A stretch of 13,766 nt of DNA, taken from the UHGV virus genome UHGV-0072288. One strand, given 5' to 3'. The translations under genes were made by a program, and so were the position numbers. Within the stretch, counting starts at the first letter, position 1. The number at the start of each line of letters is the position of its first letter. The notes under the pieces are model-generated. The model saw only the letters and a program-made list of their open reading frames with translations. It made no database searches and was not told where the DNA came from. Positions 1 through 13,766 of this stretch are shown here, piece by piece. This DNA is from a virus.

Positions 1-42
1 TTTAGTACAGTACCCGTACTGTTTTCACGCTGTCAACAAAAA

Positions 43-61
43 ACGCGCCCGAAGGTGCGTT
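43..61 (-). terminator. Possible intrinsic terminator downstream of int (minus-strand transcript)
   Basis: Imperfect GC-rich hairpin ACGCGCC-CGAA-GGTGCGT at 43-60. An A6 run at 38-43 on the + strand gives a U-run after the stem on the minus-strand RNA. About 85 nt past the int stop. Stem has one mismatch on the minus-strand RNA. Confidence 0.3.
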
Positions 62-144
62 AATAATGCCTATCAAATAAGGCTCTCATTGATAAATCAA
101 TATGTTATGAGCGCCTTATTAACCCTAATACACCCTAAAATGCC

Positions 145-1138
145 CTAGTCGGTGGACATTATGTGGACACTCCCACGCATAGGGTTAAATCGTATGGCAT
201 CAGTCAGATAATCTGGGGCGAAGTGAGCATATGTCATTGTTTGCTCGATTGTTGTATGACCCAAAATACGCTGTAGCGTGATGATATTCCCGCCGTTGAT
301 CATGAAATGTGTTGCGAAGGTATGGCGTAAAACATGCAGTGCCTGACCTTTCGGCAAGTCTGGCTTAATCTTACGAAGAACATCGCGAACTCGCTCATAG
401 TTGGTATCGAACAATTTCCCCGATTTGCGTGTAAGGATGTAGTCCGCGATTTCCTTCGATATCGGAACAGTACGAGCTGGGCCGGTTTTGGTCTTAACAA
501 AGGTCACACGGTTACTTATCACGTTTTCAGCTTTAAGATTACTGGCTTCACCCCCATCGTGCTCCTGTATTCAGGCAAAGAACGACAACTCTGCGATCAT
601 CCCCTGTAAGGGCATTCAGCAAATGGTGGATCTCTTCTTCGGACAGAAATGACATTTCTGTGTTTTCCAGACGTAACTTCTTCACGGCGCGAAACGGGTT
701 TTCGTGATGAAATTCTTCCATATCTATCAGCAAACTGAACATGCTGGACATGGAACAGAAATCCCTGTTTACCGTGCCAGCAGATACTCCACTATGAAGT
801 CGTTCTGCACGATATTTCATCAGAAAGTTGCGGGTAAGCTCGTACACTCTGGGTTCCGCCATTTCTCGGTTGATTATTTCCAAACGCTTTTTATATGAGT
901 CACCATAGTTGTGATTCTTTCCATGGTAGCTCCACCATAAAGAAATTAACTCGGATACAAGCCTCCTGTCTGCGGGTTTATCCTGCCATTCTTTATCGTG
1001 AAAGTTTGTCAGTACATACCGCTCGTATGCCTGTGCTTCCGCCTTTCTGTCAAATTTGCGTCGAATCCTTCTTCCTGAGGTTCCGCGCGGTCTAACGTCC
1101 ACTTCAAAACGACCATCATCAAGCTTCTTAATCGACAT
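145..1138 (-). pseudogene. int: Tyrosine recombinase/integrase (P2 Int-like), reading frame broken by a +1 frameshift in a C5 run (551-555)
   Basis: Two adjacent minus-strand ORFs (548-1165 and 145-522) in different frames. N-terminal part MSIKKLDDGRFEV...LCLNTGARWG-stop; C-terminal part carries the catalytic tyrosine-recombinase region (HVLRHTFATHFMINGGNIITLQRILGHTTIEQTMTYAHFAPDYL). Removing one C from 551-555 gives a contiguous ~331-aa ORF (...GARWGEASNLKAENVISNRVTF...). Start set at ATG 1138 (GGAGGG 7 nt upstream) rather than the tool's 1165. Confidence 0.75.
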
Positions 1139-1204: not shown

Positions 1205-1504
1205 TTAGCCAATTTTCCGGGTGGAACGGGATGATGTTATGTTGTCTTGCCCATCAGGGGAGAGAGACGGGGACACCTGCCCCGCAATTGGTGCCGTCTT
1301 ATCTGTCATTAACCAGAGTGTATATTTTTCAAACATATGTACCTCTATAACACTTTCTAAGACTTCTGCACGAGCTGGCTGATGGCCAGTTTCGTACTTT
1401 TTTATTGTTCCAAGAGCTACCCCAGTAAGCTCTGAAAAATCTTTTTGAGTTAACCCTTCAGCTTTCCGGATCTGCCGGAGTTTCTCCGCATAATTTCTTG
1501 ACAT
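1205..1504 (-). CDS. C: Immunity repressor, P2 C-like (99 aa, HTH)
   Basis: 99-aa ORF with helix-turn-helix (LTQKDFSELTGVALGTIKKYETG) and C-terminal KYTLWLMT...APIAGQ pattern resembling P2 C (recalled from memory). Lies upstream of int on the same strand and divergent from a cox-like gene, as in P2. Confidence 0.75.
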   Translation of the reverse strand: MSRNYAEKLRQIRKAEGLTQKDFSELTGVALGTIKKYETGHQPARAEVLESVIEVHMFEKYTLWLMTDKTAPIAGQVSPSLSPDGQDNITSSRSTRKIG

Positions 1505-1612: not shown

Positions 1613-1894
1613 ATGAAGGAACCAGCAGAAAAGGCGCTTTCAGAGTTGGTGACCCCTGAGCTTTTTGCCGAATATATAGGCAAAACGCCTGCTGCAATTC
1701 GCAAAATGGCCACGGCTGGAAAACTGCCGGTAATCCGCATGAAAGACCCTCTAAATCCATCAAAAAAAGGTGGGGAAATCTATATCCATCGGGGGGAATG
1801 GGATGCTTATGCCATTCATTTGGCTCAAATTGCCCCGCCTGAATGGCATGACTGGAAGAACCGTTTATTCACGAAAGATAAAAGTGCTCGTTAG
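1613..1894 (+). CDS. cox: Cox-like small DNA-binding protein (excision/lysogeny-lytic switch)
   Basis: 93-aa ORF divergent from the repressor gene with a good SD. Position and size match P2 Cox / 186 Apl. Sequence similarity not verified. Confidence 0.55.
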   Translation: MKEPAEKALSELVTPELFAEYIGKTPAAIRKMATAGKLPVIRMKDPLNPSKKGGEIYIHRGEWDAYAIHLAQIAPPEWHDWKNRLFTKDKSAR

Positions 1895-2265: not shown

Positions 2266-2835
2266 ATGAAACATTTAATGATTGACCTTGAAACAATGGA
2301 TAATAAACCGACTTCTGCGATTGCTTCTATCGGTGCTGTATTCTTTGACCCTGAAACTGGCGAAATGGGTGAACAGTTTTATCAACGTGTCAGCCTGGGC
2401 AGCTGTGTAGGCCACGGTCTCACTATGGGGTCAGAAACCGTATTATGGTGGATGCGTCAGGATGCCGAAGCGCGTAGCGAGCTGCTTAATGACGATTGTC
2501 TGGACTTGCCTCTGACGTTAGCTAATCTGGAAGCTTTTATTACTGAGCATTCTGACCCATCTAAAGTACAGGTATGGGGGAATAGTGCAGCGTTCGACAA
2601 TGTTATTTTACGTAATGCATCAGAGAAATGCGGGTTTGCCGATCCACTTTGGTACTACTGGAATGACCGTGATGTAAGAACGGTTGTTGAACTGTCAAAA
2701 ACACTTGGGCTGAATGTTCGTAATATTATTAAGTTTGATGGTGTTAAACATCACGCTTTATATGATGCCATTCATCAGGCTAAAGTTGTTTCTTATGTCT
2801 GGATGTATCTTGTAAAAATAGCCAGTGTGAAATAA
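2266..2835 (+). CDS. DEDDh-family 3'-5' exonuclease (DnaQ/epsilon-like)
   Basis: 189-aa ORF with Exo I motif MIDLETM (D-x-E), Exo II-like WGNSAAFDNVIL and Exo III HHALYDAIHQA (H-x4-D). SD AAGGA 6 nt upstream of ATG. Confidence 0.8.
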   Translation: MKHLMIDLETMDNKPTSAIASIGAVFFDPETGEMGEQFYQRVSLGSCVGHGLTMGSETVLWWMRQDAEARSELLNDDCLDLPLTLANLEAFITEHSDPSKVQVWGNSAAFDNVILRNASEKCGFADPLWYYWNDRDVRTVVELSKTLGLNVRNIIKFDGVKHHALYDAIHQAKVVSYVWMYLVKIASVK

Positions 2836-2837
2836 CG

Positions 2838-3056
2838 ATGCTTACAGTGACCTCTCATGCAAGTGAAAGTGTCATTCACAAGGCATTTTCAGTGCTGACA
2901 GAATATTACAACGGCAAAAAGGTATATCAGGTTATTAAGCCAAAACATTATTTCTCTGTTCATGTTTCTTATCGCTGGCGATTACTGAGTAAGGATAAGG
3001 GCAGAAGCTGGGAACTAATGACACATGAGCGATATAACAAGCAGTACAGAATATAG
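2838..3056 (+). CDS. Hypothetical small protein (72 aa)
   Basis: ATG 2 nt after the exonuclease stop, co-directional, ends just before the primase-helicase gene. No recognisable motif. Confidence 0.4.
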   Translation: MLTVTSHASESVIHKAFSVLTEYYNGKKVYQVIKPKHYFSVHVSYRWRLLSKDKGRSWELMTHERYNKQYRI

Positions 3057-3095
3057 TTTTTGCCTTTTACCCATTATTTCACATCTGGATTATTT

Positions 3096-5753
3096 ATGAA
3101 CGAAACGATACAACAGGACGTTGTGCGCCGTCTTGTTCGGGACTTTGAATTTAAAGAGCGGGATAAGTATTTGCAGCAGGGCGTTTGCCCTGCCTGTCGT
3201 AAGCGCGAATTATTTACCAGCATAGAAAAGCCCTGGATTCTGAAATGTGGCCGTGAAAATAACTGCGCACATCAGATTGTCGTGAAAGAGCTGTATCCGG
3301 ATATCTTTGAAGACTGGTCAAAACGTTACCAGACCACAGAAGATAACCCCCATGCAGTAGCTGAGGCGTATCTGCGCGAGGCCAGAGGGCTGGAGACTGA
3401 GCCATTAAAAGGCTGTTTTACCCAGGGTGCATTCGTGAAAGATGGCATGGGGTCGGCAACGGTCAGATTTTCGCTGTCATGCGGTGCAACATGGGAGCGC
3501 ATCATTGACCAGCCGCAGCGCTTCGGTAAGCAGAAAGCCAACATCAGGGGAAGCTATGTCGGTCACTGGTGGGTTCCTCCCTTTATCAACCTGCAGGAAG
3601 TGAACGAAATCTGGATCACTGAGGGAATCTTCAACGCGCTGAGTCTGTGCCAGGTAGGGTTACCTGCAGTTGCCACACTGAGCAGTAACAACTATCCGCT
3701 GGCCGCACTGGATACGCTGGCCAAAGAACTGGGTGAAAAACCACGTCCACGTCTTGTATGGGCGTTTGACGGCGATAAAGCCGGCACAAAGCACACACTG
3801 GCGTTCGCTGCCCGTAGTGATGCTGCAGGATGGAAAACTCGTGCCGCGCAGCCGGTGAAATCATCGGCATCGCTGGACTGGAATGACCTGTTGTTACGTA
3901 ACCGGTTCAGTAAGTCGGACATTAAAAATTATCGCTACTATGGCGATCTCCTTCTGGCAAAAAGCCCGACTGAGAAAGCGCTGCTCATGCATCAGCATAA
4001 CGAGTGGCACTCGTTCTACTTTGAGCATAACTCCCGCATGTACTGGTTTGAGCTGGATCTGGACAGGTATATGCGAGCCTATGAGCGCATCACCAATACC
4101 GGTACCGAAGTGGTGATGGAGTGGGAGGCCAAAGAACGGGCGGTTAAAGAGTCAGGCGGCGTGACCGAAATAGCTAACTGCTGGCTGACGCCGCTTTACT
4201 TTCAGCGGTCTGAACCTACGGACGAGTCCTGGTATTACGTGAAAGTCAGTATGCCTAACCGGCCAGCCGTGAAAGATACTTTCACGGCTAATCAGCTCAC
4301 CAGCTCCGCCGAGTTCAAAAAGCGTCTGCTGCACATCGCCAAAGGGGCGGTGTACACAGGCAGCACCAAACAGCTGGATAAGTTCATCCAGATGCGCCTC
4401 CCTGAAATCAAAGAGGTAAAGACGCAGAATTTCATCGGCTATAACAAGGATTATGCCGCCTGGTTGTTTAACCGCGTGGCCGTTTGCGATGGCCGGCTGT
4501 ATGAGATGAACGACGAGGATTACTTCGAAATCAACAGTGCCAGCGTTAAGAGCCTGAGCCTCACGCCGGCGCTGGATCTGAATCCGAAGCTGAACGAGTT
4601 TACTACGGGTTGGGTAGACGATATCTGGACGGCATTTGGTGAAAAAGGGTATGTGGCGCTGGCGTTCTGGCTGGGGTCGCTGTTTGCCGAACAAATCCGC
4701 GAGCGTGACAAGTCATTTCCGTTTCTGGAAATCGTGGGCGAGCCGGGGACAGGTAAATCCACGCTGATAGAATTTCTCTGGAAGCTCGCCGGCCGTGAGG
4801 AATACGAAGGGTTTGACCCATCTAAATCTACCGCCGCCGCGCGTGGCCGTAACTTCGCCCAGGTCGGTAATCTGCCGGTTGTGCTGATTGAGGGCGACCG
4901 TACTACCGATAACGCCAAGCAACGCGCTTTTGACTGGGACGAGCTGAAATCACTGTATAACGGTCGTGCCTCCCGCGCCGTGGGTATCAAATCGAACAAT
5001 AACGAGACGTATGAGCCGCCGTTCAGGGGAAGTATTGTGATAGCGCAAAATGCCGACACAGACGGCAGCAAGGCGTTTCTGGAGCGTATCATCCACATCT
5101 ATACCGACAAGCGCGGCCAGTCCATTCAGACGCGCCACGCTGCAGAACGACTTGAACAACTCCCCGTTAGCCAGGTATCCGGATTCACATTACTGGCCAC
5201 CATGCGCGAAAAAGAAATCATGCAGACGTTCGGCAGGGGGTACGAGCGAGCTAGGAATGAGCTGGAGTCTAATAGCAGTATTCGCCATATCCGTATTGCA
5301 AAGAATCACGCGCAGCTTGTGGGCTTGCTGGAGGCGCTTGCACTTGTTGTACCGGTGCCGGTTGAACGTATAGAAAAAACGCGTGAAGCCATCACCGCGC
5401 TGGCCGTTGAACGTTGTCAGGCACTTAAAAAGGATCATCCTCTGGTGCAGGAGTTCTGGGAGCTGTTTGATTACTTGGATGAACTGGCACCTTATGGCAT
5501 CAATCATTCATCAGATGAAAATGAAATCGCGGTTAATTTCAATCACATGGAAGAGGTCGCCGCAGCACACCGGCAGCGTATTCCGTTCACGTTAACGGAA
5601 ATTAAAAAGCTGCTTAAAAACGGCAATGAGCGCCGGTTTATCAGACAAAGCACCACGCGCAGCGCGGTAAGTGAGCGCCATAATCGTGGTAAAGGGGATA
5701 TGCAACGGATGCCGGAAACATTCCGCTGCTGGATATTTGGCCGGGAAAAGTAA
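3096..5753 (+). CDS. Replication primase-helicase (zinc-ribbon + TOPRIM primase + SF3/D5-type helicase), P4 alpha-like architecture
   Basis: N-terminal Cys4 zinc ribbon (CPAC...CGRENNC). TOPRIM motifs (WITEGIFNAL; VWAFDGDKAG). C-terminal P-loop NTPase with Walker A GEPGTGKST, Walker B PVVLIEGD and motif C IVIAQNAD. The tool starts at TTG 3060; ATG 3096 (MNETIQQ) preferred. Confidence 0.85.
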   Translation: MNETIQQDVVRRLVRDFEFKERDKYLQQGVCPACRKRELFTSIEKPWILKCGRENNCAHQIVVKELYPDIFEDWSKRYQTTEDNPHAVAEAYLREARGLETEPLKGCFTQGAFVKDGMGSATVRFSLSCGATWERIIDQPQRFGKQKANIRGSYVGHWWVPPFINLQEVNEIWITEGIFNALSLCQVGLPAVATLSSNNYPLAALDTLAKELGEKPRPRLVWAFDGDKAGTKHTLAFAARSDAAGWKTRAAQPVKSSASLDWNDLLLRNRFSKSDIKNYRYYGDLLLAKSPTEKALLMHQHNEWHSFYFEHNSRMYWFELDLDRYMRAYERITNTGTEVVMEWEAKERAVKESGGVTEIANCWLTPLYFQRSEPTDESWYYVKVSMPNRPAVKDTFTANQLTSSAEFKKRLLHIAKGAVYTGSTKQLDKFIQMRLPEIKEVKTQNFIGYNKDYAAWLFNRVAVCDGRLYEMNDEDYFEINSASVKSLSLTPALDLNPKLNEFTTGWVDDIWTAFGEKGYVALAFWLGSLFAEQIRERDKSFPFLEIVGEPGTGKSTLIEFLWKLAGREEYEGFDPSKSTAAARGRNFAQVGNLPVVLIEGDRTTDNAKQRAFDWDELKSLYNGRASRAVGIKSNNNETYEPPFRGSIVIAQNADTDGSKAFLERIIHIYTDKRGQSIQTRHAAERLEQLPVSQVSGFTLLATMREKEIMQTFGRGYERARNELESNSSIRHIRIAKNHAQLVGLLEALALVVPVPVERIEKTREAITALAVERCQALKKDHPLVQEFWELFDYLDELAPYGINHSSDENEIAVNFNHMEEVAAAHRQRIPFTLTEIKKLLKNGNERRFIRQSTTRSAVSERHNRGKGDMQRMPETFRCWIFGREK

Positions 5754-5766
5754 CGGTTCACTAGTG

Positions 5767-5831
5767 CCTAACTTTATTGTTAGGGGAAGGAGCGAACATT
5801 GAAGCAATAGGGGCGTTATCTTTATTGCTTC
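5767..5831. terminator. Two hairpins between convergent primase-helicase and glycosyltransferase genes (candidate terminators)
   Basis: Hairpin CCTAAC-TTTATT-GTTAGG at 5767-5784. Hairpin GAAGCAATA-(13 nt)-TATTGCTTC at 5801-5831 followed by a T-rich stretch on the + strand. The second overlaps the stop of the minus-strand gene. Confidence 0.4.
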
Positions 5832-6541
5832 ATTCTTATTTTAAAGTTCTTTAATTTACCGTACAGAGTATCCCGCAGGGAAAACGAAGGAACCCAATCA
5901 AAACCAGTACGCCAGGGGCGTGGACTGCCATGAAAGCAAACAACCGCCACATTATCAGGGACTTTCCCTGTCGCAGCCTCAGAGGCTAAATTTGCATTGA
6001 AGCCAATCATCGAGGGGGTGGCGATGTCACATTTATAACTAACAATTGAGCCAGGAATGATATCCTGCCATAGGGCTGGTTTTATGATGCTACCGAGAAA
6101 TCCCTGATCACCCCATTTGTCTTCAGTCTGACAATTGCGCATAATTTTCTCAGGATCAATAATGAATTGTTCCCAAATCGTCTTTTTAATCGACGCCGGA
6201 ATCATCATTATTGATGAGTTTACTCTTGAGGCATGGTTAAACTCCCGAAGCATTGTAAATTTCTTCGCACCTTCGAAAATATGAATATCTCCCGTGACCA
6301 CAACATCTACGTCAAAATAGAGTAAATCTTGGTCTCCAAGGACTGGGTGATTAGGATTAAATAGTTCAATTTTAGACCACCATCCCGGCCAGTTATAAAG
6401 CAAAGGGGTTGTGTTAACTCCAGGAATATTATCTGCATCGGTTAAACATATAGATGGAATATCTTTGAACTGACGATGAAGCCATTGGGCGTGTTTAGGG
6501 GTAAACTCTTTACTACATTTAAGAACTGAGACTATTAACAT
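5822..6541 (-). CDS. GT-A fold nucleotide-sugar glycosyltransferase-like protein (GT8-like motifs), hotspot cargo
   Basis: 239-aa ORF with strong SD (GGGAGG 6 nt before ATG at 6541). DxD motif after a hydrophobic strand (LLYFDVDVVV). C-terminal FHGSPRPW resembling the GT8 H-x-G-x-x-K/R-P-W motif. Noticeably AT-rich. Confidence 0.6.
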   Translation of the reverse strand: MLIVSVLKCSKEFTPKHAQWLHRQFKDIPSICLTDADNIPGVNTTPLLYNWPGWWSKIELFNPNHPVLGDQDLLYFDVDVVVTGDIHIFEGAKKFTMLREFNHASRVNSSIMMIPASIKKTIWEQFIIDPEKIMRNCQTEDKWGDQGFLGSIIKPALWQDIIPGSIVSYKCDIATPSMIGFNANLASEAATGKVPDNVAVVCFHGSPRPWRTGFDWVPSFSLRDTLYGKLKNFKIRMKQ

Positions 6542-6680: not shown

Positions 6681-7010
6681 CTATGCGGCAGCAGTGCCGT
6701 CCTGACTCAGAAACTTTAACATCAGCTGCTTTTGCTGGATATCAAGGCTGTTACAGATAGTGGCGATCAACGCATCGCTGGATTTGGCGCTGGGGCTGAT
6801 GGTATGTGAGAATGTCATATTCATCACAAAAGTGTGACCACATTCAACATCGGTACACGCGCAATATAAATCCGACAGTTCCTTGTGTTTTCGGGCTGTT
6901 TTTTTGATAACAGCCCTTGCCTCACATACCGGACAGTAAACCTTCATTACCCGCATATCCATCGCTCCGGAAGTTGGAAAACGATGATATTTTAGCCTTT
7001 TTGCGAACAT
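6681..7010 (-). CDS. ogr: Ogr/Delta-family zinc-finger protein (late-gene transcription activator family)
   Basis: CPVC-x22-CACTDVEC-GHTFV pattern matching P2 Ogr (CPLC...CQNVNCSATFI, from memory). Start ATG at 7010 overlaps the portal stop (TAATG) with SD GGAAGGTG upstream. Alternative internal starts at 6956/6947 would give an Ogr-sized ~88-91 aa protein. Confidence 0.65.
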   Translation of the reverse strand: MFAKRLKYHRFPTSGAMDMRVMKVYCPVCEARAVIKKTARKHKELSDLYCACTDVECGHTFVMNMTFSHTISPSAKSSDALIATICNSLDIQQKQLMLKFLSQDGTAAA

Positions 7011-8028
7011 TAATCACCTTCCAGCTCACTGTCTTTCAGGAAATTAAGGTACAGGTGGGGCGGTACATCACTTTCCTGTTCCACTGCGGCGGTAAACATG
7101 CGCTGAATGGGCAAAATTTCTGCTTTGCGGTAGGTTTTGGACGCTTTCTCAACATCTCCCATTACTGCGCCGTTCGTCGGGATAATCCCCGCCAGTCCTG
7201 CCGGGAATCGATGCGCGGTCAGTACGTCCTGGGCGCTGATGCTCTTGATGTTCTGAAACTCATCTTTGGCGCTGATATCCCCAATCGGGATAAATTTGAT
7301 GCCGTCCGGATCGCCTTTGGGGATGTTCACAAACATGGTGCTGAAGTTCCCGATCCCCTTTGACTGCTCCAGCTTCTGAATAATTTCTTCTTCCACTTCA
7401 TCAGTCATATTTGGGTCGTTACAGTAGATCATGCCACCTGTGTGTCCGCCGTTATGGTAGTAACGCCGACGAAAAATTGTTGCCTCACCGTTAAGCAGGG
7501 CAGAATGGATACCGCTGATATAATCCGGCAGACCATAAATCGCCTGTTGCGGATCGTACTGCCTGAGAAAAATAATATCTTCAGGCGGATAAATCATCGG
7601 TTCACCCTGCTGCAGTACCACAAACTCCCCGGTCTTACGCTGGCGGGTGAAGTGGAAGCCGGGGGTTACGGTCCCCCCCCCCCCCCCCAGCCGTTACGCA
7701 CTTTCAGAATGGCCACATCACCGAAGGTCAGCCAGTCGAACACGGCTGCACCAAGCTGTTCATGCGTCAGTCCGCCGTCTTTATAGTTTGCCGTCACCAT
7801 ATTGCGACGGGCATACAGCACACCGCCGTGCTGCGCGTTCAGGTTCACCAGTTGCGCCAGCGCCAGCCGGTCAATCGGGAGCGTCCAGTGTTCCGCTTCA
7901 TTGTCATACCAGACGTCTGTGTAGTTTGTGCCGGTCGTCAGAATGGGTTCCGGTTTACCCAGGGTAATAAGGCTCATATGGCGCGGCTTGCTGGCGGTGC
8001 GGCGTTCCCTGTATTTCCGTTTTTTCAT
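7010..8028 (-). pseudogene. Q: Portal protein (P2 gpQ-like), frame interrupted by a 16-nt homopolymer
   Basis: Two minus-strand ORFs (7666-8028 and 7010-7621) together give ~340 aa, matching the ~344-aa P2 portal. The upstream frame reads ...LKVRNGWGGGGGP-stop through the G16 tract. The downstream frame is open back through the tract (...GGGGGTVTPGFHFTRQRKTGEFVVLQQGEPM...). ATGA overlap with the terminase stop at 8025-8028. Confidence 0.8.
7673..7688. repeat. Homopolymeric tract C16 (+ strand) = G16 in the portal coding sense
   Basis: Direct count: 16 consecutive C at 7673-7688. Tract lengths of 14 or 17 would join the two portal reading frames; the observed 16 does not. Confidence 0.95.
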
Positions 8029-9158
8029 GCTGCTTTCCCTAAGTTACCCCAGCGTGATTTTCGCTGGTTTTCAAAGTTTAATGGCTCGTTGTCAATGGCA
8101 TGGGCGATAGCCCAGAAACTGTCTGCGTGTCCTGTTTCTGCTGTGCGATCGGCGACGAAAGTCATTGCGTTGCCGCTGGCCGTGGACGTACGGCGGATGG
8201 TCATAAAGCTGGCGGCGATTTCGGTCTTCTCCTTATCCCATTCCACGCGGCCGTCTTCGATAACGTCGATCATCTTCATCACCAGACGATTTTTGGTCTC
8301 GACGCCGTAGCGGATCGCCACTGCCTGACGCATGGCAAAGTGCTGAACGTCTTCAAAGACACCGCTACCCAGTCCAGTGATATCAATGCCGATGTAGGTC
8401 ATGTTGTACTGGCCAAACAGCTTCTTAATCTGTGCCGCCTGCCACTTCCAGTTCATCCCCTGCCAGTGGAATACACGCAGTACCCGAAATTTTTCGCCGG
8501 CCACTATCGGCGGCGCGATGATCACGAAGGTGGAGGTGTCTCCGCTGCGAGCCGGGTCATAACCCGCCCACACTTCACGGTTGCCGAACGGCCGGGGCAG
8601 GTTTTCGTCATGATCCTCCCAGAAATACCAGGTTGCACCAATCTGGCGGCTTTTCAGGATGTTCCTGATTTGCTGATGAAGATTAGCGCGAAGGTGTTTC
8701 TGGTAACCGAAAAGGTGCTCCAGCGCGAACCGGTCAAAATCTTCCTGTGTCAGTCCGCTGATGTCGTTCTTTTTGTACTTGCCACGTTTCCGGGGCTTTT
8801 CGTCGCCACCGGACTGACGCGCCGGCGCATCATTTTCACTGTGTTTAATTTCTGCCAGCTTTTCCTGATGCTTATTGTGCTGTGCACGTAGTTTCACCAG
8901 GTGAGAAACGAGACTGTCCAGCTCCCGCAGCTCCAGCTCCGATTTCCCTTCACGTAATGTCAGTGACTGAATGCGACGGTTTAATGCATCTTCGGTGGAT
9001 TCATGACTGAGTAATTCCGCCCAGCAATATTTCTCCGCCCAGTAATAGACAATGCGTCTGTTAGGCAGATTAAGTTCGCTGGCAATTTCCTGCGGGGTAT
9101 AGCGTTTTAAATAAAGCGCCCGCGCAACGCCTTTTAATTCTTCTGAATATTTAGCCAT
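8025..9158 (-). CDS. P: Terminase large subunit (P2 gpP-like), apparently shortened: N-terminal HTH plus C-terminal nuclease, ATPase core largely missing
   Basis: N-terminal HTH (YTPQEIASELNLPNRRIVYYW). Deviant Walker-A-like KSRQIGAT followed almost immediately by nuclease-type motifs (AGYDPARSGDTSTFVI; YIGIDITGLGSG; HADSFWAIAHA). 378-382 aa versus ~590 aa recalled for P2 gpP. Start uncertain (GTG 9173 or ATG 9158, neither with a good SD). Confidence 0.65.
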   Translation of the reverse strand: MAKYSEELKGVARALYLKRYTPQEIASELNLPNRRIVYYWAEKYCWAELLSHESTEDALNRRIQSLTLREGKSELELRELDSLVSHLVKLRAQHNKHQEKLAEIKHSENDAPARQSGGDEKPRKRGKYKKNDISGLTQEDFDRFALEHLFGYQKHLRANLHQQIRNILKSRQIGATWYFWEDHDENLPRPFGNREVWAGYDPARSGDTSTFVIIAPPIVAGEKFRVLRVFHWQGMNWKWQAAQIKKLFGQYNMTYIGIDITGLGSGVFEDVQHFAMRQAVAIRYGVETKNRLVMKMIDVIEDGRVEWDKEKTEIAASFMTIRRTSTASGNAMTFVADRTAETGHADSFWAIAHAIDNEPLNFENQRKSRWGNLGKAA

Positions 9159-9301: not shown

Positions 9302-10141
9302 ATGTCAGGTTCACAACTGGCAACAAACTGGATTTGTATCGCCACTGCGGGTGAAACGGTTGATAAGCGATTTATTGAAGAACAATGGTTGCTTGATGCC
9401 GCTGAATTATATGACCCCTCTTTGTATACCGCGCTGTTATGGCCGGAACATTCCCGTAATTTCGGGAATATGGGGGAGGTGCTGGAAGTAAAAGCCGAGC
9501 GGGATGATGAAGGTATTCTTCGTTTATATGCCCGCCTCTGTCCGGCGATTTCATTGCTACAGGCAAATGCAGACGGTCAGCTTTTATTTTTATCACCGGA
9601 GTTTACACCGGACGGCAATTTCAGAAATACCGGGAAAACCTATCTTGAGGGACTGGCCATTACTGACAGTCCGGCCGGGGTAAGCACCACACGGTTACGT
9701 TTCAGCCGCACCAGGGGAAAACGCATCGGACCATACAAGCCGCTGGCGTTTGATGAAGTCAGGGAATTTAAAAAGGAAAAGGGAATGTCAAAGACAGCGA
9801 AAAAGGGCTGGCGCCATTTTTTCAGTATCGAAGAACCGGAGCAGACCCCGGAGCAGGAACCTTCACAGTCTGATGCCTTACAGGCGCTGGCTGAAGCGCT
9901 GGATGCCATTGATAAGCGCGTATCTGCTATTGAAACCCGTCTGGGTGAGGCGGAAGAAGCGGTATCTGATGTGCAGGACGATGTGGACACCGTGAAGGAA
10001 GTAGTGGACACCGAAGATTTTGCGCGTCTGGTGGGGAACCTGCCGGAGCTGGTGAAAAACTTCAGCAAGCTGAATAACAAAGTTACTCAACTGCCGGACA
10101 AGAAATTCAGCAAGGGCAAAAAAGGCTTCAATTTCCTGTAA
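9302..10141 (+). CDS. O: Capsid scaffolding protein (P2 gpO-like)
   Basis: 279 aa from ATG 9302 with GGAGG SD; the tool's 9242 start is GTG. N-terminal region resembles gpO and the C-terminal half is acidic/coiled-coil (EEAVSDVQDDVDTVKEVVDTEDF). Sits between terminase and major capsid genes. Confidence 0.75.
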   Translation: MSGSQLATNWICIATAGETVDKRFIEEQWLLDAAELYDPSLYTALLWPEHSRNFGNMGEVLEVKAERDDEGILRLYARLCPAISLLQANADGQLLFLSPEFTPDGNFRNTGKTYLEGLAITDSPAGVSTTRLRFSRTRGKRIGPYKPLAFDEVREFKKEKGMSKTAKKGWRHFFSIEEPEQTPEQEPSQSDALQALAEALDAIDKRVSAIETRLGEAEEAVSDVQDDVDTVKEVVDTEDFARLVGNLPELVKNFSKLNNKVTQLPDKKFSKGKKGFNFL

Positions 10142-10175
10142 GGGATAACACTACTTTTCTTTAAGGAAAAAGAAT

Positions 10176-11204
10176 ATGCAATTAAATGCGAAAGCCCGTG
10201 AGTTTCTGCTTCAGTATCACACCGGGCTGCGTGAATCCTACGGGGCGACCGACAGCGAACGCTGGTTTGCACTCACCGACCCCAAAGAAACCCAGCTGCG
10301 CAATGCGCTGATGGAGCAGTCTGATTTCCTGAATCTGATCACCGTTGCCGATGTCGATCAGCTGCAGGGGCAGGTGGTTCCGGTTGGCAGCTCTGGCCTG
10401 TATACCGGGCGTGTACTGGATGGCCGCTTCCGTAAGAAAGTGGGCGTGAGTGGTAATGATTACAGTCTGGTCGAGACCGACTCATGCGCCGCACTCACCT
10501 GGCAGTTGCTTTCTGTCTGGGCGAACGCCGGCGATGAAAACGAGTTTTTCCAGCGTGTTCAGGAGTTCACCAATCAGGCGTTTGCGCTGGATATGCTGCG
10601 TATCGGCTTTAACGGTACCAAAGTGGCCGAGACCACGAACGCGGAAACCAACCCGAACGGCGAGGATGTGAACAAGGGCTGGCATCAGATCGTCAAAGAG
10701 TGGAAGGACGGCCAGCAGATCATCACTGATGCGGTGGTGCTTGACGGTGACGGGAAAGGCGATTACGTGTCGCTGGATGCAATGGCCTCCGACCTTATCA
10801 ACGCCAAAATCCCGGCACAGTACCGTAATGATCCACGCCTGGTGGTTCTTGTCGGCGCTGATCTGGTCGCGGCGGAGTCGTTCCGTCTGTATCAGAAAGC
10901 AGACAAACCCACGGAGAAGATCGCCGCGCAACTGCTGTCTGACAGCATCGCCGGCCGCACGGCTTACGTACCGCCGTTTATGCCAGGCAAACGCATGATT
11001 GTTACGACACTGCCAAACCTGCACATCTACACCCAGCGCGGCACGCGTCAGCGTAAAGCGGAGTTTGTGGAAGACCGTAAACAGTACGAAAACAAATACC
11101 TGCGTAACGAAGGTTATGCGGTTGAGTATCCGGAACTGTACGCCGCGTTTGATGAAAGTGCGGTAGCTATCGGGGCACCTGTCGCGCCTCCGGCAGGCGA
11201 GTAA
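10176..11204 (+). CDS. N: Major capsid protein (P2 gpN-like)
   Basis: 342-aa ORF directly downstream of the scaffold gene with SD AAGGA. Size and position match P2 gpN (~357 aa). Confidence 0.75.
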   Translation: MQLNAKAREFLLQYHTGLRESYGATDSERWFALTDPKETQLRNALMEQSDFLNLITVADVDQLQGQVVPVGSSGLYTGRVLDGRFRKKVGVSGNDYSLVETDSCAALTWQLLSVWANAGDENEFFQRVQEFTNQAFALDMLRIGFNGTKVAETTNAETNPNGEDVNKGWHQIVKEWKDGQQIITDAVVLDGDGKGDYVSLDAMASDLINAKIPAQYRNDPRLVVLVGADLVAAESFRLYQKADKPTEKIAAQLLSDSIAGRTAYVPPFMPGKRMIVTTLPNLHIYTQRGTRQRKAEFVEDRKQYENKYLRNEGYAVEYPELYAAFDESAVAIGAPVAPPAGE

Positions 11205-11214
11205 GGGGGATTTA

Positions 11215-12252
11215 ATGCAACTGTCACCGGCACAGCGCCACAGCGCACGAATTGAAGCGGAGCGGTTACTGCGACAGCAGCAGTCTCTGGACACGGAAAC
11301 CAGCCTGCATATTCAGATTGTCGCGCTGGAGAAAGATGTCGCCGCAGCTGCAGCGATTGAAAGCCGCGCTGAGCGAATGGAATTTAAGCGTGATGTGCTG
11401 TTACCGCGCTGGATGCCAACCGCGCAAGCCGGGACGGTTATCCAGACAGAGCGCATTAACGGTCGCGTGTATGAGCTGGCCACCAGTGAGGATGTAGTGA
11501 TCGCTTCCGGTACGGCCTGCGCATTACTGCCGGTAAAAGCCACCGGCACCGGGGGCGCATATAACCTTGCGCCGGGATATTACCGCATTCTGCCGGTTGC
11601 CGTTGACGGTATCAGCCACGTGGCCAGCGAAGAAAACTGGCTGACCGTACCGGGCGCGGATGAAGAAAGTGATGACGAGCTGCGCGAACGCTGCCGCAAT
11701 CAGTTCAATCTGGTGGGGAATTACCACACTGACGCCGTTTACCGGTCGATGATTGCCGGCGTTGCAGGGCTGAGTATTGACCGGATTTTCTTTGAACATG
11801 AAGCGCCGAGGGGACCCGGTACCGCCAACGCGTATCTGTTGCTGGACAGCGGGGTGGCTTCTTCGCCGTTCGTGGATGCCGTCAATGACTATATCAACAC
11901 GCAGGGGCATCACGGCCACGGTGATGATATGCAGTGCTATCCCATGCCGGAAACGCTTCATGATCTGTCCGTCACAGTTTATGTCAAAAATCTGGCCAAT
12001 TTCAGCGATGAGGACAGGAAAACCCTGAAGGACGGGGTGGAGAACATGATCCGCTGTGCTTTTCGTGAGAATGCTGATTATGACGTCAGGAAGACGTGGC
12101 CATATTCGCGTTTTTCCTTTTCTCAGCTGGGGCGGGAGATCCACAGGACATTTGCTCAGACGGAATCACTGTCTTTTTCACTGGGTGATATCACCAGCGA
12201 ACTGAGTGTTCCACGCCTGAAATCGCTTGCGGTTGTTGTTGAAAATGAGTGA
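11215..12252 (+). CDS. Chimeric ORF: terminase small/endonuclease subunit (gpM-like) N-terminus (~73 aa) fused to a baseplate protein J-like body
   Basis: N-terminus MQLSPAQRH...KRDVLLPRWMP matches the gpM start (MTSPAQRH...KRELLPFWLPW, from memory). The remainder (...ESDDELRERCRNQF...GVASSPFVDAVNDYI...) resembles P2 gpJ (...ESDTDYRLRIQQAF...GVASEDLLAVVRNAL...). Implies an in-frame deletion of the M-to-J interval. Confidence 0.5.
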   Translation: MQLSPAQRHSARIEAERLLRQQQSLDTETSLHIQIVALEKDVAAAAAIESRAERMEFKRDVLLPRWMPTAQAGTVIQTERINGRVYELATSEDVVIASGTACALLPVKATGTGGAYNLAPGYYRILPVAVDGISHVASEENWLTVPGADEESDDELRERCRNQFNLVGNYHTDAVYRSMIAGVAGLSIDRIFFEHEAPRGPGTANAYLLLDSGVASSPFVDAVNDYINTQGHHGHGDDMQCYPMPETLHDLSVTVYVKNLANFSDEDRKTLKDGVENMIRCAFRENADYDVRKTWPYSRFSFSQLGREIHRTFAQTESLSFSLGDITSELSVPRLKSLAVVVENE

Positions 12253-12583
12253 GTTCCTGAAAAAGCTGGCCGGGATGGTGCTTCCTTCCTGGATGAACAA
12301 AGGCGAGCCGGCGAAGCTGCTGAAAACGGCGCGGCGGTTCTGGACTGAGGTTTACGGCTGGGTTACGTGGCCAGTGAATCAGTTCGATCCGCTGACGTGT
12401 ACGCCGGCATTACTGAACCTGCTGGCGTATGACCGCGATATACCGACCTGCTTTTGCGCTGGTTTACCGGTTATGTTGAACGTTCACAACCAGCTGAAAA
12501 CGGTTATCAGCGTCTGTTCATTCGTGAGCTGGCCGGTGTTTTTGAAAGGATGTGGCCATGTTCATTTCAGCACCCGACATTAA
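12245..12583 (+). CDS. Tail protein I-like (gpI / YmfQ family), C-terminal part doubtful
   Basis: ATG 12245 overlaps the upstream stop (ATGAGTGA). N-terminal ~65 aa (...VNQFDPLTCTPALLNLLAYDRDI) resembles gpI (...WNPDTCPANLLPWLAWAFSVDRWD). After ~12440 the frame is Cys-rich and atypical, while frame 2 opens at 12433 and stays open to the window end. Confidence 0.45.
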   Translation: MSEFLKKLAGMVLPSWMNKGEPAKLLKTARRFWTEVYGWVTWPVNQFDPLTCTPALLNLLAYDRDIPTCFCAGLPVMLNVHNQLKTVISVCSFVSWPVFLKGCGHVHFSTRH

Positions 12584-13766
12584 GGGATGTAGCCGGCTGG
12601 CTGACGGAAAACAGCGGGATCGGTGTCAGTGTACCCGATGTGTCTTACAGCGATACTCCGATCCCCCATTTCACCCATAACGGTACCGGCTATCAGTTGC
12701 TGAACAACCTGGGCAGGGCATTCAGTATCCAGGATTACATCTGGTACCAGTTGCCTGATGGTTCGCTTTACGTCGGCGGTGCTGAAAAGTCACTGTTTAC
12801 CGGTCGTCCGGTCGAAGTGCCGGCAGAGTTCAGCCAGGGGGCTGCTGGCGGGAATACCATAACGTTACCGGTGATCCAGACGATACGACCCGGCGTTGAG
12901 CTTAACGGTGAACGGGTCACCAAAGTCCATCTTACAAATGACACGATGACTATCACCTGGACACCCCGGAACCGCGTCACAGGCAGCCCCCTTCAGAAAA
13001 CACCGACACAACGACAGATTGAGAGCCATTATCCGGAACTGGCTTCCGGGCTTCATCTGCCAAAGATGGCCAGAGTGGTGGCACATACTGAACCCGTGAA
13101 AAGTGGTAATTTTGCCGATCCATTCCGGCCACGTTATGCCGTGGACGTTCAGCTGCTTGACGCAGACGGAAACCCGGACAATCAGACGCCTGTTTACTCA
13201 GCGGTGCCGCTGCCGGTGCCAATGGCCGGGAATGATTCAGGTATGTTTCAGTTTCCGCCAGAAGGGACGCTGGTTGAGGTTGCATTCACGGGAGGCAGAC
13301 CGGATAAACCCTTTATCAGGCAGACGCTGCCGGATGGTACCAGCCTGCCGGACGTTAAACCCGGTGAGCAATTGCAGCAGCAGAGGGAAGAAGTATCCCA
13401 GAGGGTGACTCAGGCTGGAGACTGGGTAAGGCAGACCGATCAAACCATCAGTGAAACATCGATGGCGCGAACCGTAAAAGCCGATACGGAGCAGCGCGAA
13501 CTGGTCAGCCGTGAAACCACGGTGAAAGCCACGGACAAAACCACGGTACTGGGAACCACCACACTGCTGGCCGGAGCCATCCAGCAGGTAAGCGCCGGTG
13601 ATTATAGCCAGGCGGTGAAAGGTAACAGGCTGGCCAGTATTGAAGGAAACGAAGAAACGGACATAGCAGGACAGCAGTCCACTAAAGTGGGCGGTGCTAT
13701 AGCCGTGGAGGTTGGCGAAAGCCTGACAGAGAAGATTGCCGCACTGCGTAAATCAGTGGCCGCCGG
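12550..13766 (+). CDS. Tail/baseplate spike-like protein with gpV/gp5/VgrG-type OB-fold motif and beta-helix-like repeats; partial at the window end, start uncertain
   Basis: Frame 2 is open from 12433 to the window end. Contains ...MFQFPPEGTLVEVAFTGGRPDKPFI..., matching the gp5/gpV/VgrG OB-fold signature, followed by Thr/Val/Gly-rich repeats (TVKADTEQRELVSRETTVKATDKTTVLGTT...). Candidate starts: ATG 12550 (SD abuts the ATG), GTG 12640, ATG 13066. Confidence 0.35.
   Translation, partial: MWPCSFQHPTLRDVAGWLTENSGIGVSVPDVSYSDTPIPHFTHNGTGYQLLNNLGRAFSIQDYIWYQLPDGSLYVGGAEKSLFTGRPVEVPAEFSQGAAGGNTITLPVIQTIRPGVELNGERVTKVHLTNDTMTITWTPRNRVTGSPLQKTPTQRQIESHYPELASGLHLPKMARVVAHTEPVKSGNFADPFRPRYAVDVQLLDADGNPDNQTPVYSAVPLPVPMAGNDSGMFQFPPEGTLVEVAFTGGRPDKPFIRQTLPDGTSLPDVKPGEQLQQQREEVSQRVTQAGDWVRQTDQTISETSMARTVKADTEQRELVSRETTVKATDKTTVLGTTTLLAGAIQQVSAGDYSQAVKGNRLASIEGNEETDIAGQQSTKVGGAIAVEVGESLTEKIAALRKSVAA

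Follow-up and report, generated by a model that had tools for sequence, protein, structure and literature searches.

An in-frame gpM::J fusion open reading frame as the very probable scar of an 8,216-bp deletion in a defective Evevirus-type prophage of Escherichia coli

The window, by which we mean the whole stretch of 13,766 nucleotides of the UHGV virus genome UHGV-0072288 that was analysed, begins in the chromosome of E. coli, passes through an attachment site into phage genes and ends inside a baseplate/spike-like gene. Its features are as follows.

1-39, no strand: E. coli chromosomal flank, pheL-proximal side of the raiA/pheL intergenic region
40-61, no strand: attL core AAAACGCGCCCGAAGGTGCGTT, from the raiA terminator hairpin
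145-1138, minus strand: tyrosine integrase, split by a +1 frameshift (C5 vs C4 at ~547-551)
1205-1504, minus strand: helix-turn-helix (HTH) repressor, C-like (Pfam HTH_3, reference annotation)
1613-1894, plus strand: Cox (Pfam PF10743, E 7.7e-25)
2266-2835, plus strand: 3'-5' exonuclease, Rv2179c-like (Pfam PF16473, E 1e-67)
2838-3056, plus strand: ParE-like toxin domain protein, 72 aa (Pfam PF24732, E 8.4e-17)
3096-5753, plus strand: Toprim primase/helicase-type replication protein, 885 aa (PHROG 1139 DNA primase, E 0; Pfam Toprim_3)
5822-6541, minus strand: 239-aa gene, PHROG 1962 'glycosyltransferase' (moron category), with no Pfam match
6681-7010, minus strand: Ogr/Delta late-gene activator (Pfam PF04606, E 1e-15)
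7010-8028, minus strand: portal gene, PHROG 68 matching both pieces (7010-7621 and 7666-8028)
8025-9158, minus strand: large terminase (TerL) carrying an internal deletion, residues 180-395 (ATPase domain) lost
8621-8623: junction of that in-frame 648-bp deletion, microhomology AGA
9302-10141, plus strand: GPO scaffold/protease (Pfam PF05929; PHROG 73)
10176-11204, plus strand: P2-family major capsid protein (Pfam PF05125, E 1e-97)
11215-12252, plus strand: in-frame fusion ORF gpM(1-71)::J(121-394), 345 aa (ORF list, profiles, BLASTP)
11426-11427, no strand: junction of a deletion of 8,216 bp (reference prophage 11787-20002), microhomology AA
12245-12583, plus strand: gpI-like N-terminus (~65 aa) followed by an out-of-frame remnant, 112 aa (PHROG 1228, positions 2-64 of 193)
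12437-12441: junction of an out-of-frame 3,955-bp deletion (reference prophage 21017-24971), microhomology GATAT
12550-13766, plus strand: baseplate/spike-like protein, C-terminal ~478 of 567 aa (PHROG 2258), running off the window

The element is integrated at the raiA/pheL site of the E. coli chromosome. Window positions 1-700 align to NZ_AP023286.1 just downstream of pheL, an intact reference prophage described below is bounded at both ends by a 22-bp direct repeat with one mismatch (the other copy lying at 28823-28844 of the reference), and a reconstruction of the empty site is matched without interruption at 100 % in 5273 of 5426 E. coli genomes. A circular or episomal element was considered and rejected, as the two ends of the contig share no overlap and the left one consists of attL and host flank. 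Among the early genes, the ParE-like ORF lies between the exonuclease and primase genes and is annotated in the related remnants YPE10 and HZ13 and unannotated in the intact reference, while a one-base T insertion relative to the reference at window position 3077 falls 18 nt upstream of the primase start codon. The 239-aa PHROG 1962 gene sits between primase and ogr and is conserved in all relatives examined. At the right end, the spike-like protein gives weak matches to Pfam Phage_base_V and Gp5_trimer_C. The intact prophage also carries an acyltransferase gene, possibly an O-antigen-modification moron, between its last tail gene and attR, and the source scaffold of the window ends before this gene.

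The ORF at 11215-12252 had been read in an earlier note, made from the letters alone, as the start of gpM joined in frame to a baseplate J-like protein, and the profile and BLASTP searches bear this out. The first part, residues 3-71, aligns with positions 2-70 of the 232 in the profile of PHROG 74, the terminase small subunit (E 5.9e-14). The remainder is hit by two baseplate profiles, PHROG 6 for the baseplate wedge over residues 69-342 (E 4.3e-35) and Pfam PF04865 Baseplate_J over residues 71-285 (E 7.6e-21); the Pfam match has 75 bits against a gathering cutoff of 21.1 and covers positions 38-239 of a 255-position profile. The match to PF05944 (Phage small terminase subunit) falls below its gathering score (19.4 bits vs 29.4; profile positions 2-37 of 130) because only 36 of the 130 profile positions remain; intact gpM reaches 132.6 bits with the same profile. 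When the fusion is set against the proteins of the intact prophage, its residues 1-71 agree throughout with gpM WP_032292413.1 (71/72 if residue 72 is included), and its residues 72-345 are identical to residues 121-394 of J WP_032292400.1. The junction had been placed at about residue 73; its exact place is residue 71/72 at nt 11426-11427. The ORF comprises about 30 % of the small terminase (TerS) and a J protein devoid of its N-terminus, and is not a full-length Baseplate J (gp47) protein, as J residues 1-120 are deleted. Of the neighbours of the J part, the DUF2590 gene (the W-like partner side) is deleted and gpI is truncated after ~65 aa.

A protein of one single family, aligning end to end, had been named as the observation that would overturn this reading; it was ruled out, since two families match and the sole full-length homologue found in a search of 5.8 billion protein clusters is the fusion itself, no other protein covering both halves. 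The fusion protein forms a singleton cluster at 90 % and is seen only on human-gut metagenome contigs (four ENA contigs). The native gpM ribosome-binding site AGGGGGA is retained in front of it. The ORF serves as an annotation warning, being a chimeric pseudogene product that pipelines call "baseplate J family protein".

The intact parent came to light when the region was compared by megablast with the complete genomes of E. coli, its right-hand part matching at 99.9 % inside a prophage that also carries the other parts, at separate places. It is a prophage of ~29 kb in E. coli 2018-18.25PC (NZ_AP023286.1, 1088208-1117300; locus L001, to which the reference coordinates in this text refer) that is 99.9 % identical to the window. 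Its genes follow the order int, repressor, cox, exonuclease, toprim primase, ogr, portal, TerL, scaffold, capsid and gpM, and after gpM come 14 further genes, then J, the gpI-like gene, the fibre and the rest. The parent is a member of the genus Evevirus in the family Peduoviridae. The element in the window retains the P2-family head module (portal, gpP-like TerL, GPO scaffold, P2-type capsid and gpM TerS), with TerL and TerS truncated, as well as the Peduoviridae hallmarks of an Ogr/Delta zinc-finger activator, Cox and a tyrosine integrase, the last frameshifted. No complete tail or lysis module is present in the element, which lacks the sheath, tube, tape measure and fibre as well as the holin, endolysin and spanin. 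Live temperate coliphages of the Evevirus group have been obtained from E. coli of the infant gut (PMC6969025). A related phage, ESSI2_ev239, was isolated live in this way; it is 93 % identical to the element in the J region and carries its late genes in the same order.

Alignment with the intact prophage resolved the window into four collinear blocks of 99.7-99.96 % identity with three gaps between them, and the exact ends of the three deletions were set by exact extension against L001; every breakpoint is nucleotide-exact because the parent is known at 99.9 % identity. At the middle gap, gpM codon 71 is joined to J codon 121, and the flanks of the 8,216-bp gap match the intact prophage at 99.9-99.96 % DNA identity on both sides, a correspondence to one prophage that is far beyond chance. 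This comparison shows a single deletion joining M to J, and the microhomology that the earlier note had proposed to look for at the breakpoint is present as 2 nt (AA). By annotation and PHROG scans, the lost interval held 14 whole genes and parts of M and J. The losses from head, neck and tail are the head-tail adaptor Ad1 (gpL-like), tail terminator, Neck1/tail completion protein, sheath and tube; those from lysis are the holin, M15 endolysin and Rz-like spanin; and the tail chaperone, DUF6890 protein, tape measure, DUF2590 protein and two unknown proteins of 63 and 77 aa are missing as well, as are the last 166 aa of gpM and the first 120 aa of J. From the gene map of P2, an interval of 6-7 kb with head completion, lysis and tail genes had been expected between M and J. 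Genes of all three kinds are gone, but the interval measures 8.2 kb and the gene order of the parent is not that of P2, so the expected list of lost genes and its size were only approximately right. Related genomes with the intact interval do exist, namely the 2018-18.25PC prophage itself and 12 complete E. coli genomes in which the core of the interval is present at 99.9-100 %. The junction was absent from 5,426 E. coli genomes, GTDB representatives, IMG/VR and JGI metagenomes.

The M-J deletion is one of three in the window, the other two having taken away the ATPase domain of TerL and the fibre region. Pfam Terminase_6N spans residues 166-386 of intact TerL and is absent from the TerL of the window; the junction of the 648-bp deletion responsible was absent from 5,426 E. 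coli genomes, GTDB representatives and IMG/VR. The 3,955-bp deletion runs from the gpI-like gene into the last baseplate/spike-like gene with loss of the fibre, fibre assembly and two unknown genes, and its junction was absent from 5,426 E. coli genomes, JGI metagenomes and IMG/VR. Apart from these deletions, the integrase is split into ORFs at 145-522 and 548-1165 that match Pfam Phage_integrase and Int_N, and the extra C relative to the reference is also found in the ENA scaffold. Related remnants, too, have integrases that are annotated as defective, with an internal stop in HZ13 and a frameshift in PSJ-12. The portal gene was examined as a candidate pseudogene and rejected as such: at 7649-7681 the reference reads through 35 nt of normal portal sequence, whereas the source scaffold shows a gap of 40 N that the window fills with a 33-nt patch, the end of which is a long run of C. 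The split of the gene is an artefact of this poly-C patch.

The window corresponds to the first 13.77 kb of scaffold BAEC15-1_SAMEA2579949_scaffold_935 and is identical to it except at 7649-7681, while a MEGAHIT k127 contig from ERR525732, a run belonging to PRJEB6456 (the Bäckhed infant cohort), carries all three junctions. Every copy is from a metagenome assembly, and these assemblies probably go back to one study and perhaps to a single sample. As the sequence is known only from metagenome contigs, and as the 40-N gap inside the portal gene of the source scaffold means that coverage may be low, the M-J join and the other two joins could be thought to have been made by the assembler or by chimeric library molecules, the real prophage being intact. 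This is very improbable, since two different assemblies (the MEGAHIT k127 contig and the scaffold of another pipeline) share all three junctions identically and equivalent deletion remnants occur in the finished E. coli genomes YPE10, PSJ-12 and HZ13. Moreover, the overlaps at the junctions are 2-5 nt, whereas de Bruijn assemblers need overlaps of k-1; microhomologies so short are beyond k-mer assemblers, and the junctions must therefore be present in the reads. Slightly less probable still is that the fusion has a role in a functional, selected element, either a nascent phage satellite or a domesticated capsid-gene cassette. The genes for the repressor, Cox, replication, Ogr, portal, scaffold and capsid are all kept, and several independent remnants are similar in size, each lacking ~12.5-13.7 kb, which would suit such an element. 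However, the 99.9 % identity to an intact phage makes the element very recent, TerS is truncated, TerL is without its ATPase domain, the gpI fusion is out of frame and the fusion is a singleton, and the gene sets of the other remnants differ, YPE10 being without scaffold and capsid and having kept lysis. Compared with known satellites (P4-like, PICI and capsid-forming PICI), the junctions and the fusion are singletons, the small terminase is truncated, and no satellite-specific family or hallmark gene was matched among the window proteins scanned with Pfam and PHROG, which were part of the ORFs. On the minus strand of the retained J'-I' island, an antisense gene at window 11524-12144 was also rejected, as it is not conserved and is interrupted by stops in most lineages; the "retained island" itself is an effect of ascertainment, the search having used the C-terminus of J.

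The ORF is very probably the scar of an 8,216-bp illegitimate-recombination deletion in an integrated Evevirus-type prophage, a functionless by-product in a dead remnant. The deletion with its exact ends and content, and the integration into the chromosome, are direct observations, and in kind the locus is an ordinary defective prophage with a chimeric pseudogene. The course of events can be proposed from the aligned sequences. A break would have joined gpM codon 71 to J codon 121 at the AA dinucleotide that both share, and the reading frame would have been kept by chance (1 in 3), so that gene callers see one 345-aa protein. As the gpM start and ribosome-binding site are kept in the late O-N-M operon, the fusion may be made if Ogr is expressed; as neither half is a complete domain and the assembly partners are gone, it is most likely functionless. 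With the holin, endolysin, spanin, TerL ATPase domain and tail gone, the element should be able neither to lyse nor to package, and the expectation in the earlier note that no virions would form and no host lysis would occur is supported by the removal of head completion, all lysis and most tail genes. The three deletions and the integrase frameshift together would leave a dead, locked-in remnant, and the fusion ORF marks a prophage that can presumably no longer lyse its host or make virions. The in-frame status of the deletions was considered separately as a sign of selection and rejected, two of three in frame having a chance probability of about 0.26.

As the same family of prophages yielded further remnants, a survey was made of 13 remnants, originating from E. 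coli, Salmonella and metagenomes, which together contain 24 deletion junctions and have intact relatives at 95-100 % identity. These remnants were found through chimeric or truncated J proteins from homology searches, and their contigs were mapped on the intact relatives. A microhomology of 2-6 nt is present at every junction (24/24), against an average of 0.68 nt for random junctions, 16 % of which have at least 2 nt. The dinucleotide TA lies within 18 of the 24 junction microhomologies where 4 % would be expected, in a set that was imperfectly ascertained, its events having been reached by way of J similarity and the motif having been seen post hoc. In PSJ-12, which was analysed after the rule had been formulated, all four junctions (4/4) obey it. 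The flanks of 29 unique TA sites are enriched in G at -2 (p 2e-4) and in C at +3/+4 (p 0.02 and 0.001), and with C or G predominant at -3/-4 they form the near-palindrome SSGN-TA-NCC, again noticed post hoc.

Individual sites were re-used in independent events. Within J, nt 371-374 (GGT TA TCC) took part in five of them, as left and as right end (L010, L011, YPE10, L096 and L097), nt 356-360 were used in the window and in L007, and nt 316-317 (GTTAT, only in lineages with that sequence) in L099 and L100. Elsewhere in the reference, position 8334 (CAG ATA TCC) was used twice, by the TerL deletion of the window and as the right breakpoint of a different deletion in PSJ-12; position 13153 was used by L010 and PSJ-12, and position 27050 by YPE10 and PSJ-12. 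Positions 24967-72 served as the right end of the 3,955-bp deletion in the window (GGGATAT/ACCGAC) and in the unrelated Logan contig L097, where this site is joined to J nt 374 at contig positions 10369-10374. The J hot spot covers reference positions 19998-20016 (window ~11424-11441), and seven independent deletions end within these 19 nt, the loci besides the window being L007, L010, L011, L015, L096 and L097. Five of the seven end at the TA of GGTTATCC. The M-J junction of the window (AA) is without TA and lies 12 nt upstream of the J TA site. A lineage with GGTGATAC in place of GGTTATCC at the J site broke elsewhere. Two leads were dropped, a TerL breakpoint supposedly shared with YPE10, whose break is at reference position 8521 and not 8334, and a GACGGT repeat motif, which is only partly associated with breakpoints and was superseded by the TA-centred pattern.

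The remnants themselves are varied. L009 encodes an in-frame TerS::sheath::J triple chimera of 528 aa (10001-11587) produced by two deletions 300 nt apart, L007 an in-frame capsid(1-62)::J fusion of 338 aa (3986-5002), and L099 a J of 212 aa with an internal in-frame deletion (10001-10639). At least two deletions are present in all well-mapped remnants found through J (the window, L007, L009, L010, L011, YPE10, L094, L097 and PSJ-12), and one deletion each was mapped within the stretch compared in L023, L099 and L100. In the complete E. coli genomes HZ13 (L101, 18173-19392) and I3 (L102, 18497-19250), the same prophage is truncated by IS-associated events, with ISKpn26 and IS1A adjoining the breaks, and a second, IS-driven route of decay therefore coexists with the microhomology route.

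The breaks may tentatively be attributed to type IIA topoisomerase (DNA gyrase) sites, either by gyrase-mediated illegitimate recombination or by the joining of breaks from trapped complexes; this is a possibility that we hold to be somewhat doubtful, although cleavage by gyrase or Topo IV is the leading hypothesis for the hot spots and the evidence is suggestive. The frequency of TA in the microhomologies and the re-use of the same sites with different partners, above all J nt 371-374, would fit an enzyme of this kind, as would the break elsewhere in the lineage without GGTTATCC at that site. The near-palindromic flanks resemble the core of the published E. coli gyrase consensus, GGCGGTAT/GGGG/ATACCGCC (supplement of PMC6379681), and a crude match score on the consensus is higher at 39 breakpoints than in the background (p about 0.003), but the effect is small (8.6 vs 7.9 matches of 18) and was scored on the consensus instead of a position matrix. 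Besides, the M-J junction of the window and a few others are without TA, at several sites the TA and the predicted scissile bonds are 1-3 nt out of register, the flank motif was recognised post hoc, and other TA-preferring enzymes compete as candidates.

Several other explanations of the hot spots were tried and rejected. Escape deletions from CRISPR self-targeting were rejected as no spacer-like match to reference positions 19955-20035 or 13100-15250 was present in 5,426 complete genomes. The J hot spot has no hairpin or other structure (DNA fold z-score -0.09, with only weak repeats), and it does not behave as a conserved cis-element, as its third codon positions vary normally. A DnaA box, compared by eye, was not supported, as TTATCCAGA agrees at 8 of 9 positions but is not conserved. 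The same comparison by eye gave no support to Chi, hix/gix or res sites, integron secondary sites (GWTMW), R64 Rci sfx, EcoRV with its star sites or IS target sites, and none of these motifs, the DnaA box included, suits the crossover positions at all junctions.

If gyrase does cut at these sites, the decay of the prophages would be non-random, with deletions starting at a few near-palindromic SSGN-TA-NCC sites, centred on TA and re-used by independent lineages, that are gyrase cleavage sites, such as J nt 371-374 and the neighbouring nt 356-360 of the window junction, a proposal we advance with some reserve. In that case gyrase-mediated illegitimate recombination would be the main engine disarming these prophages in nature, and a defined enzyme, possibly together with exposure to an antibiotic or toxin, would be tied to prophage domestication. 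Quinolones, microcins or the ParE-like toxin of the prophage itself might then stimulate deletions; the ParE-like domain protein that the prophage encodes is of a gyrase-toxin family. The Evevirus-type family yields nucleotide-exact natural deletion junctions with intact parents known at 99-100 % identity. No description of the TA-centred rule or of these specific prophage hot spots was found in the literature.

The element can be placed among several known systems. In integration site, gene set and gene order it is the same as the Evevirus phages ESSI2_ev239, ev040, ev015 and ev129 and the 2018-18.25PC prophage, but unlike these intact relatives it is missing 12.8 kb of the late region, where the M::J and I' chimeric ORFs replace ~20 genes. 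Its likeness to P2 is at the level of family homologues, namely Ogr, portal Q, terminase P, scaffold O, capsid N, terminase M, baseplate J and Cox. Unlike P2, the parent carries its sheath, tube, tape measure and chaperone between the head genes and J, its replication module is P4-alpha-like (toprim primase) instead of resembling P2 A, and its DNA is not P2-like. Enterobacterial defective (cryptic) prophages arise by deletion, as in the decayed P2-like and lambdoid remnants of E. coli, and the element shares with them chromosomal integration, internal deletions that took lysis and virion genes, truncated and fused ORFs, a broken integrase and the retention of immunity and early genes. It differs from the usual cryptic prophage in that its parent is known at 99.9 %, from which it is separated by three deletions and hardly any point changes. 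Illegitimate recombination in E. coli that depends on short homology or gyrase is known from the hot spots of lambda bio transducing phages, and the prophage deletions, with their 2-6 nt of homology, recurrent hot spots and gyrase-like flanks, resemble this process, differing from it in that the prophage case is known from sequence alone.
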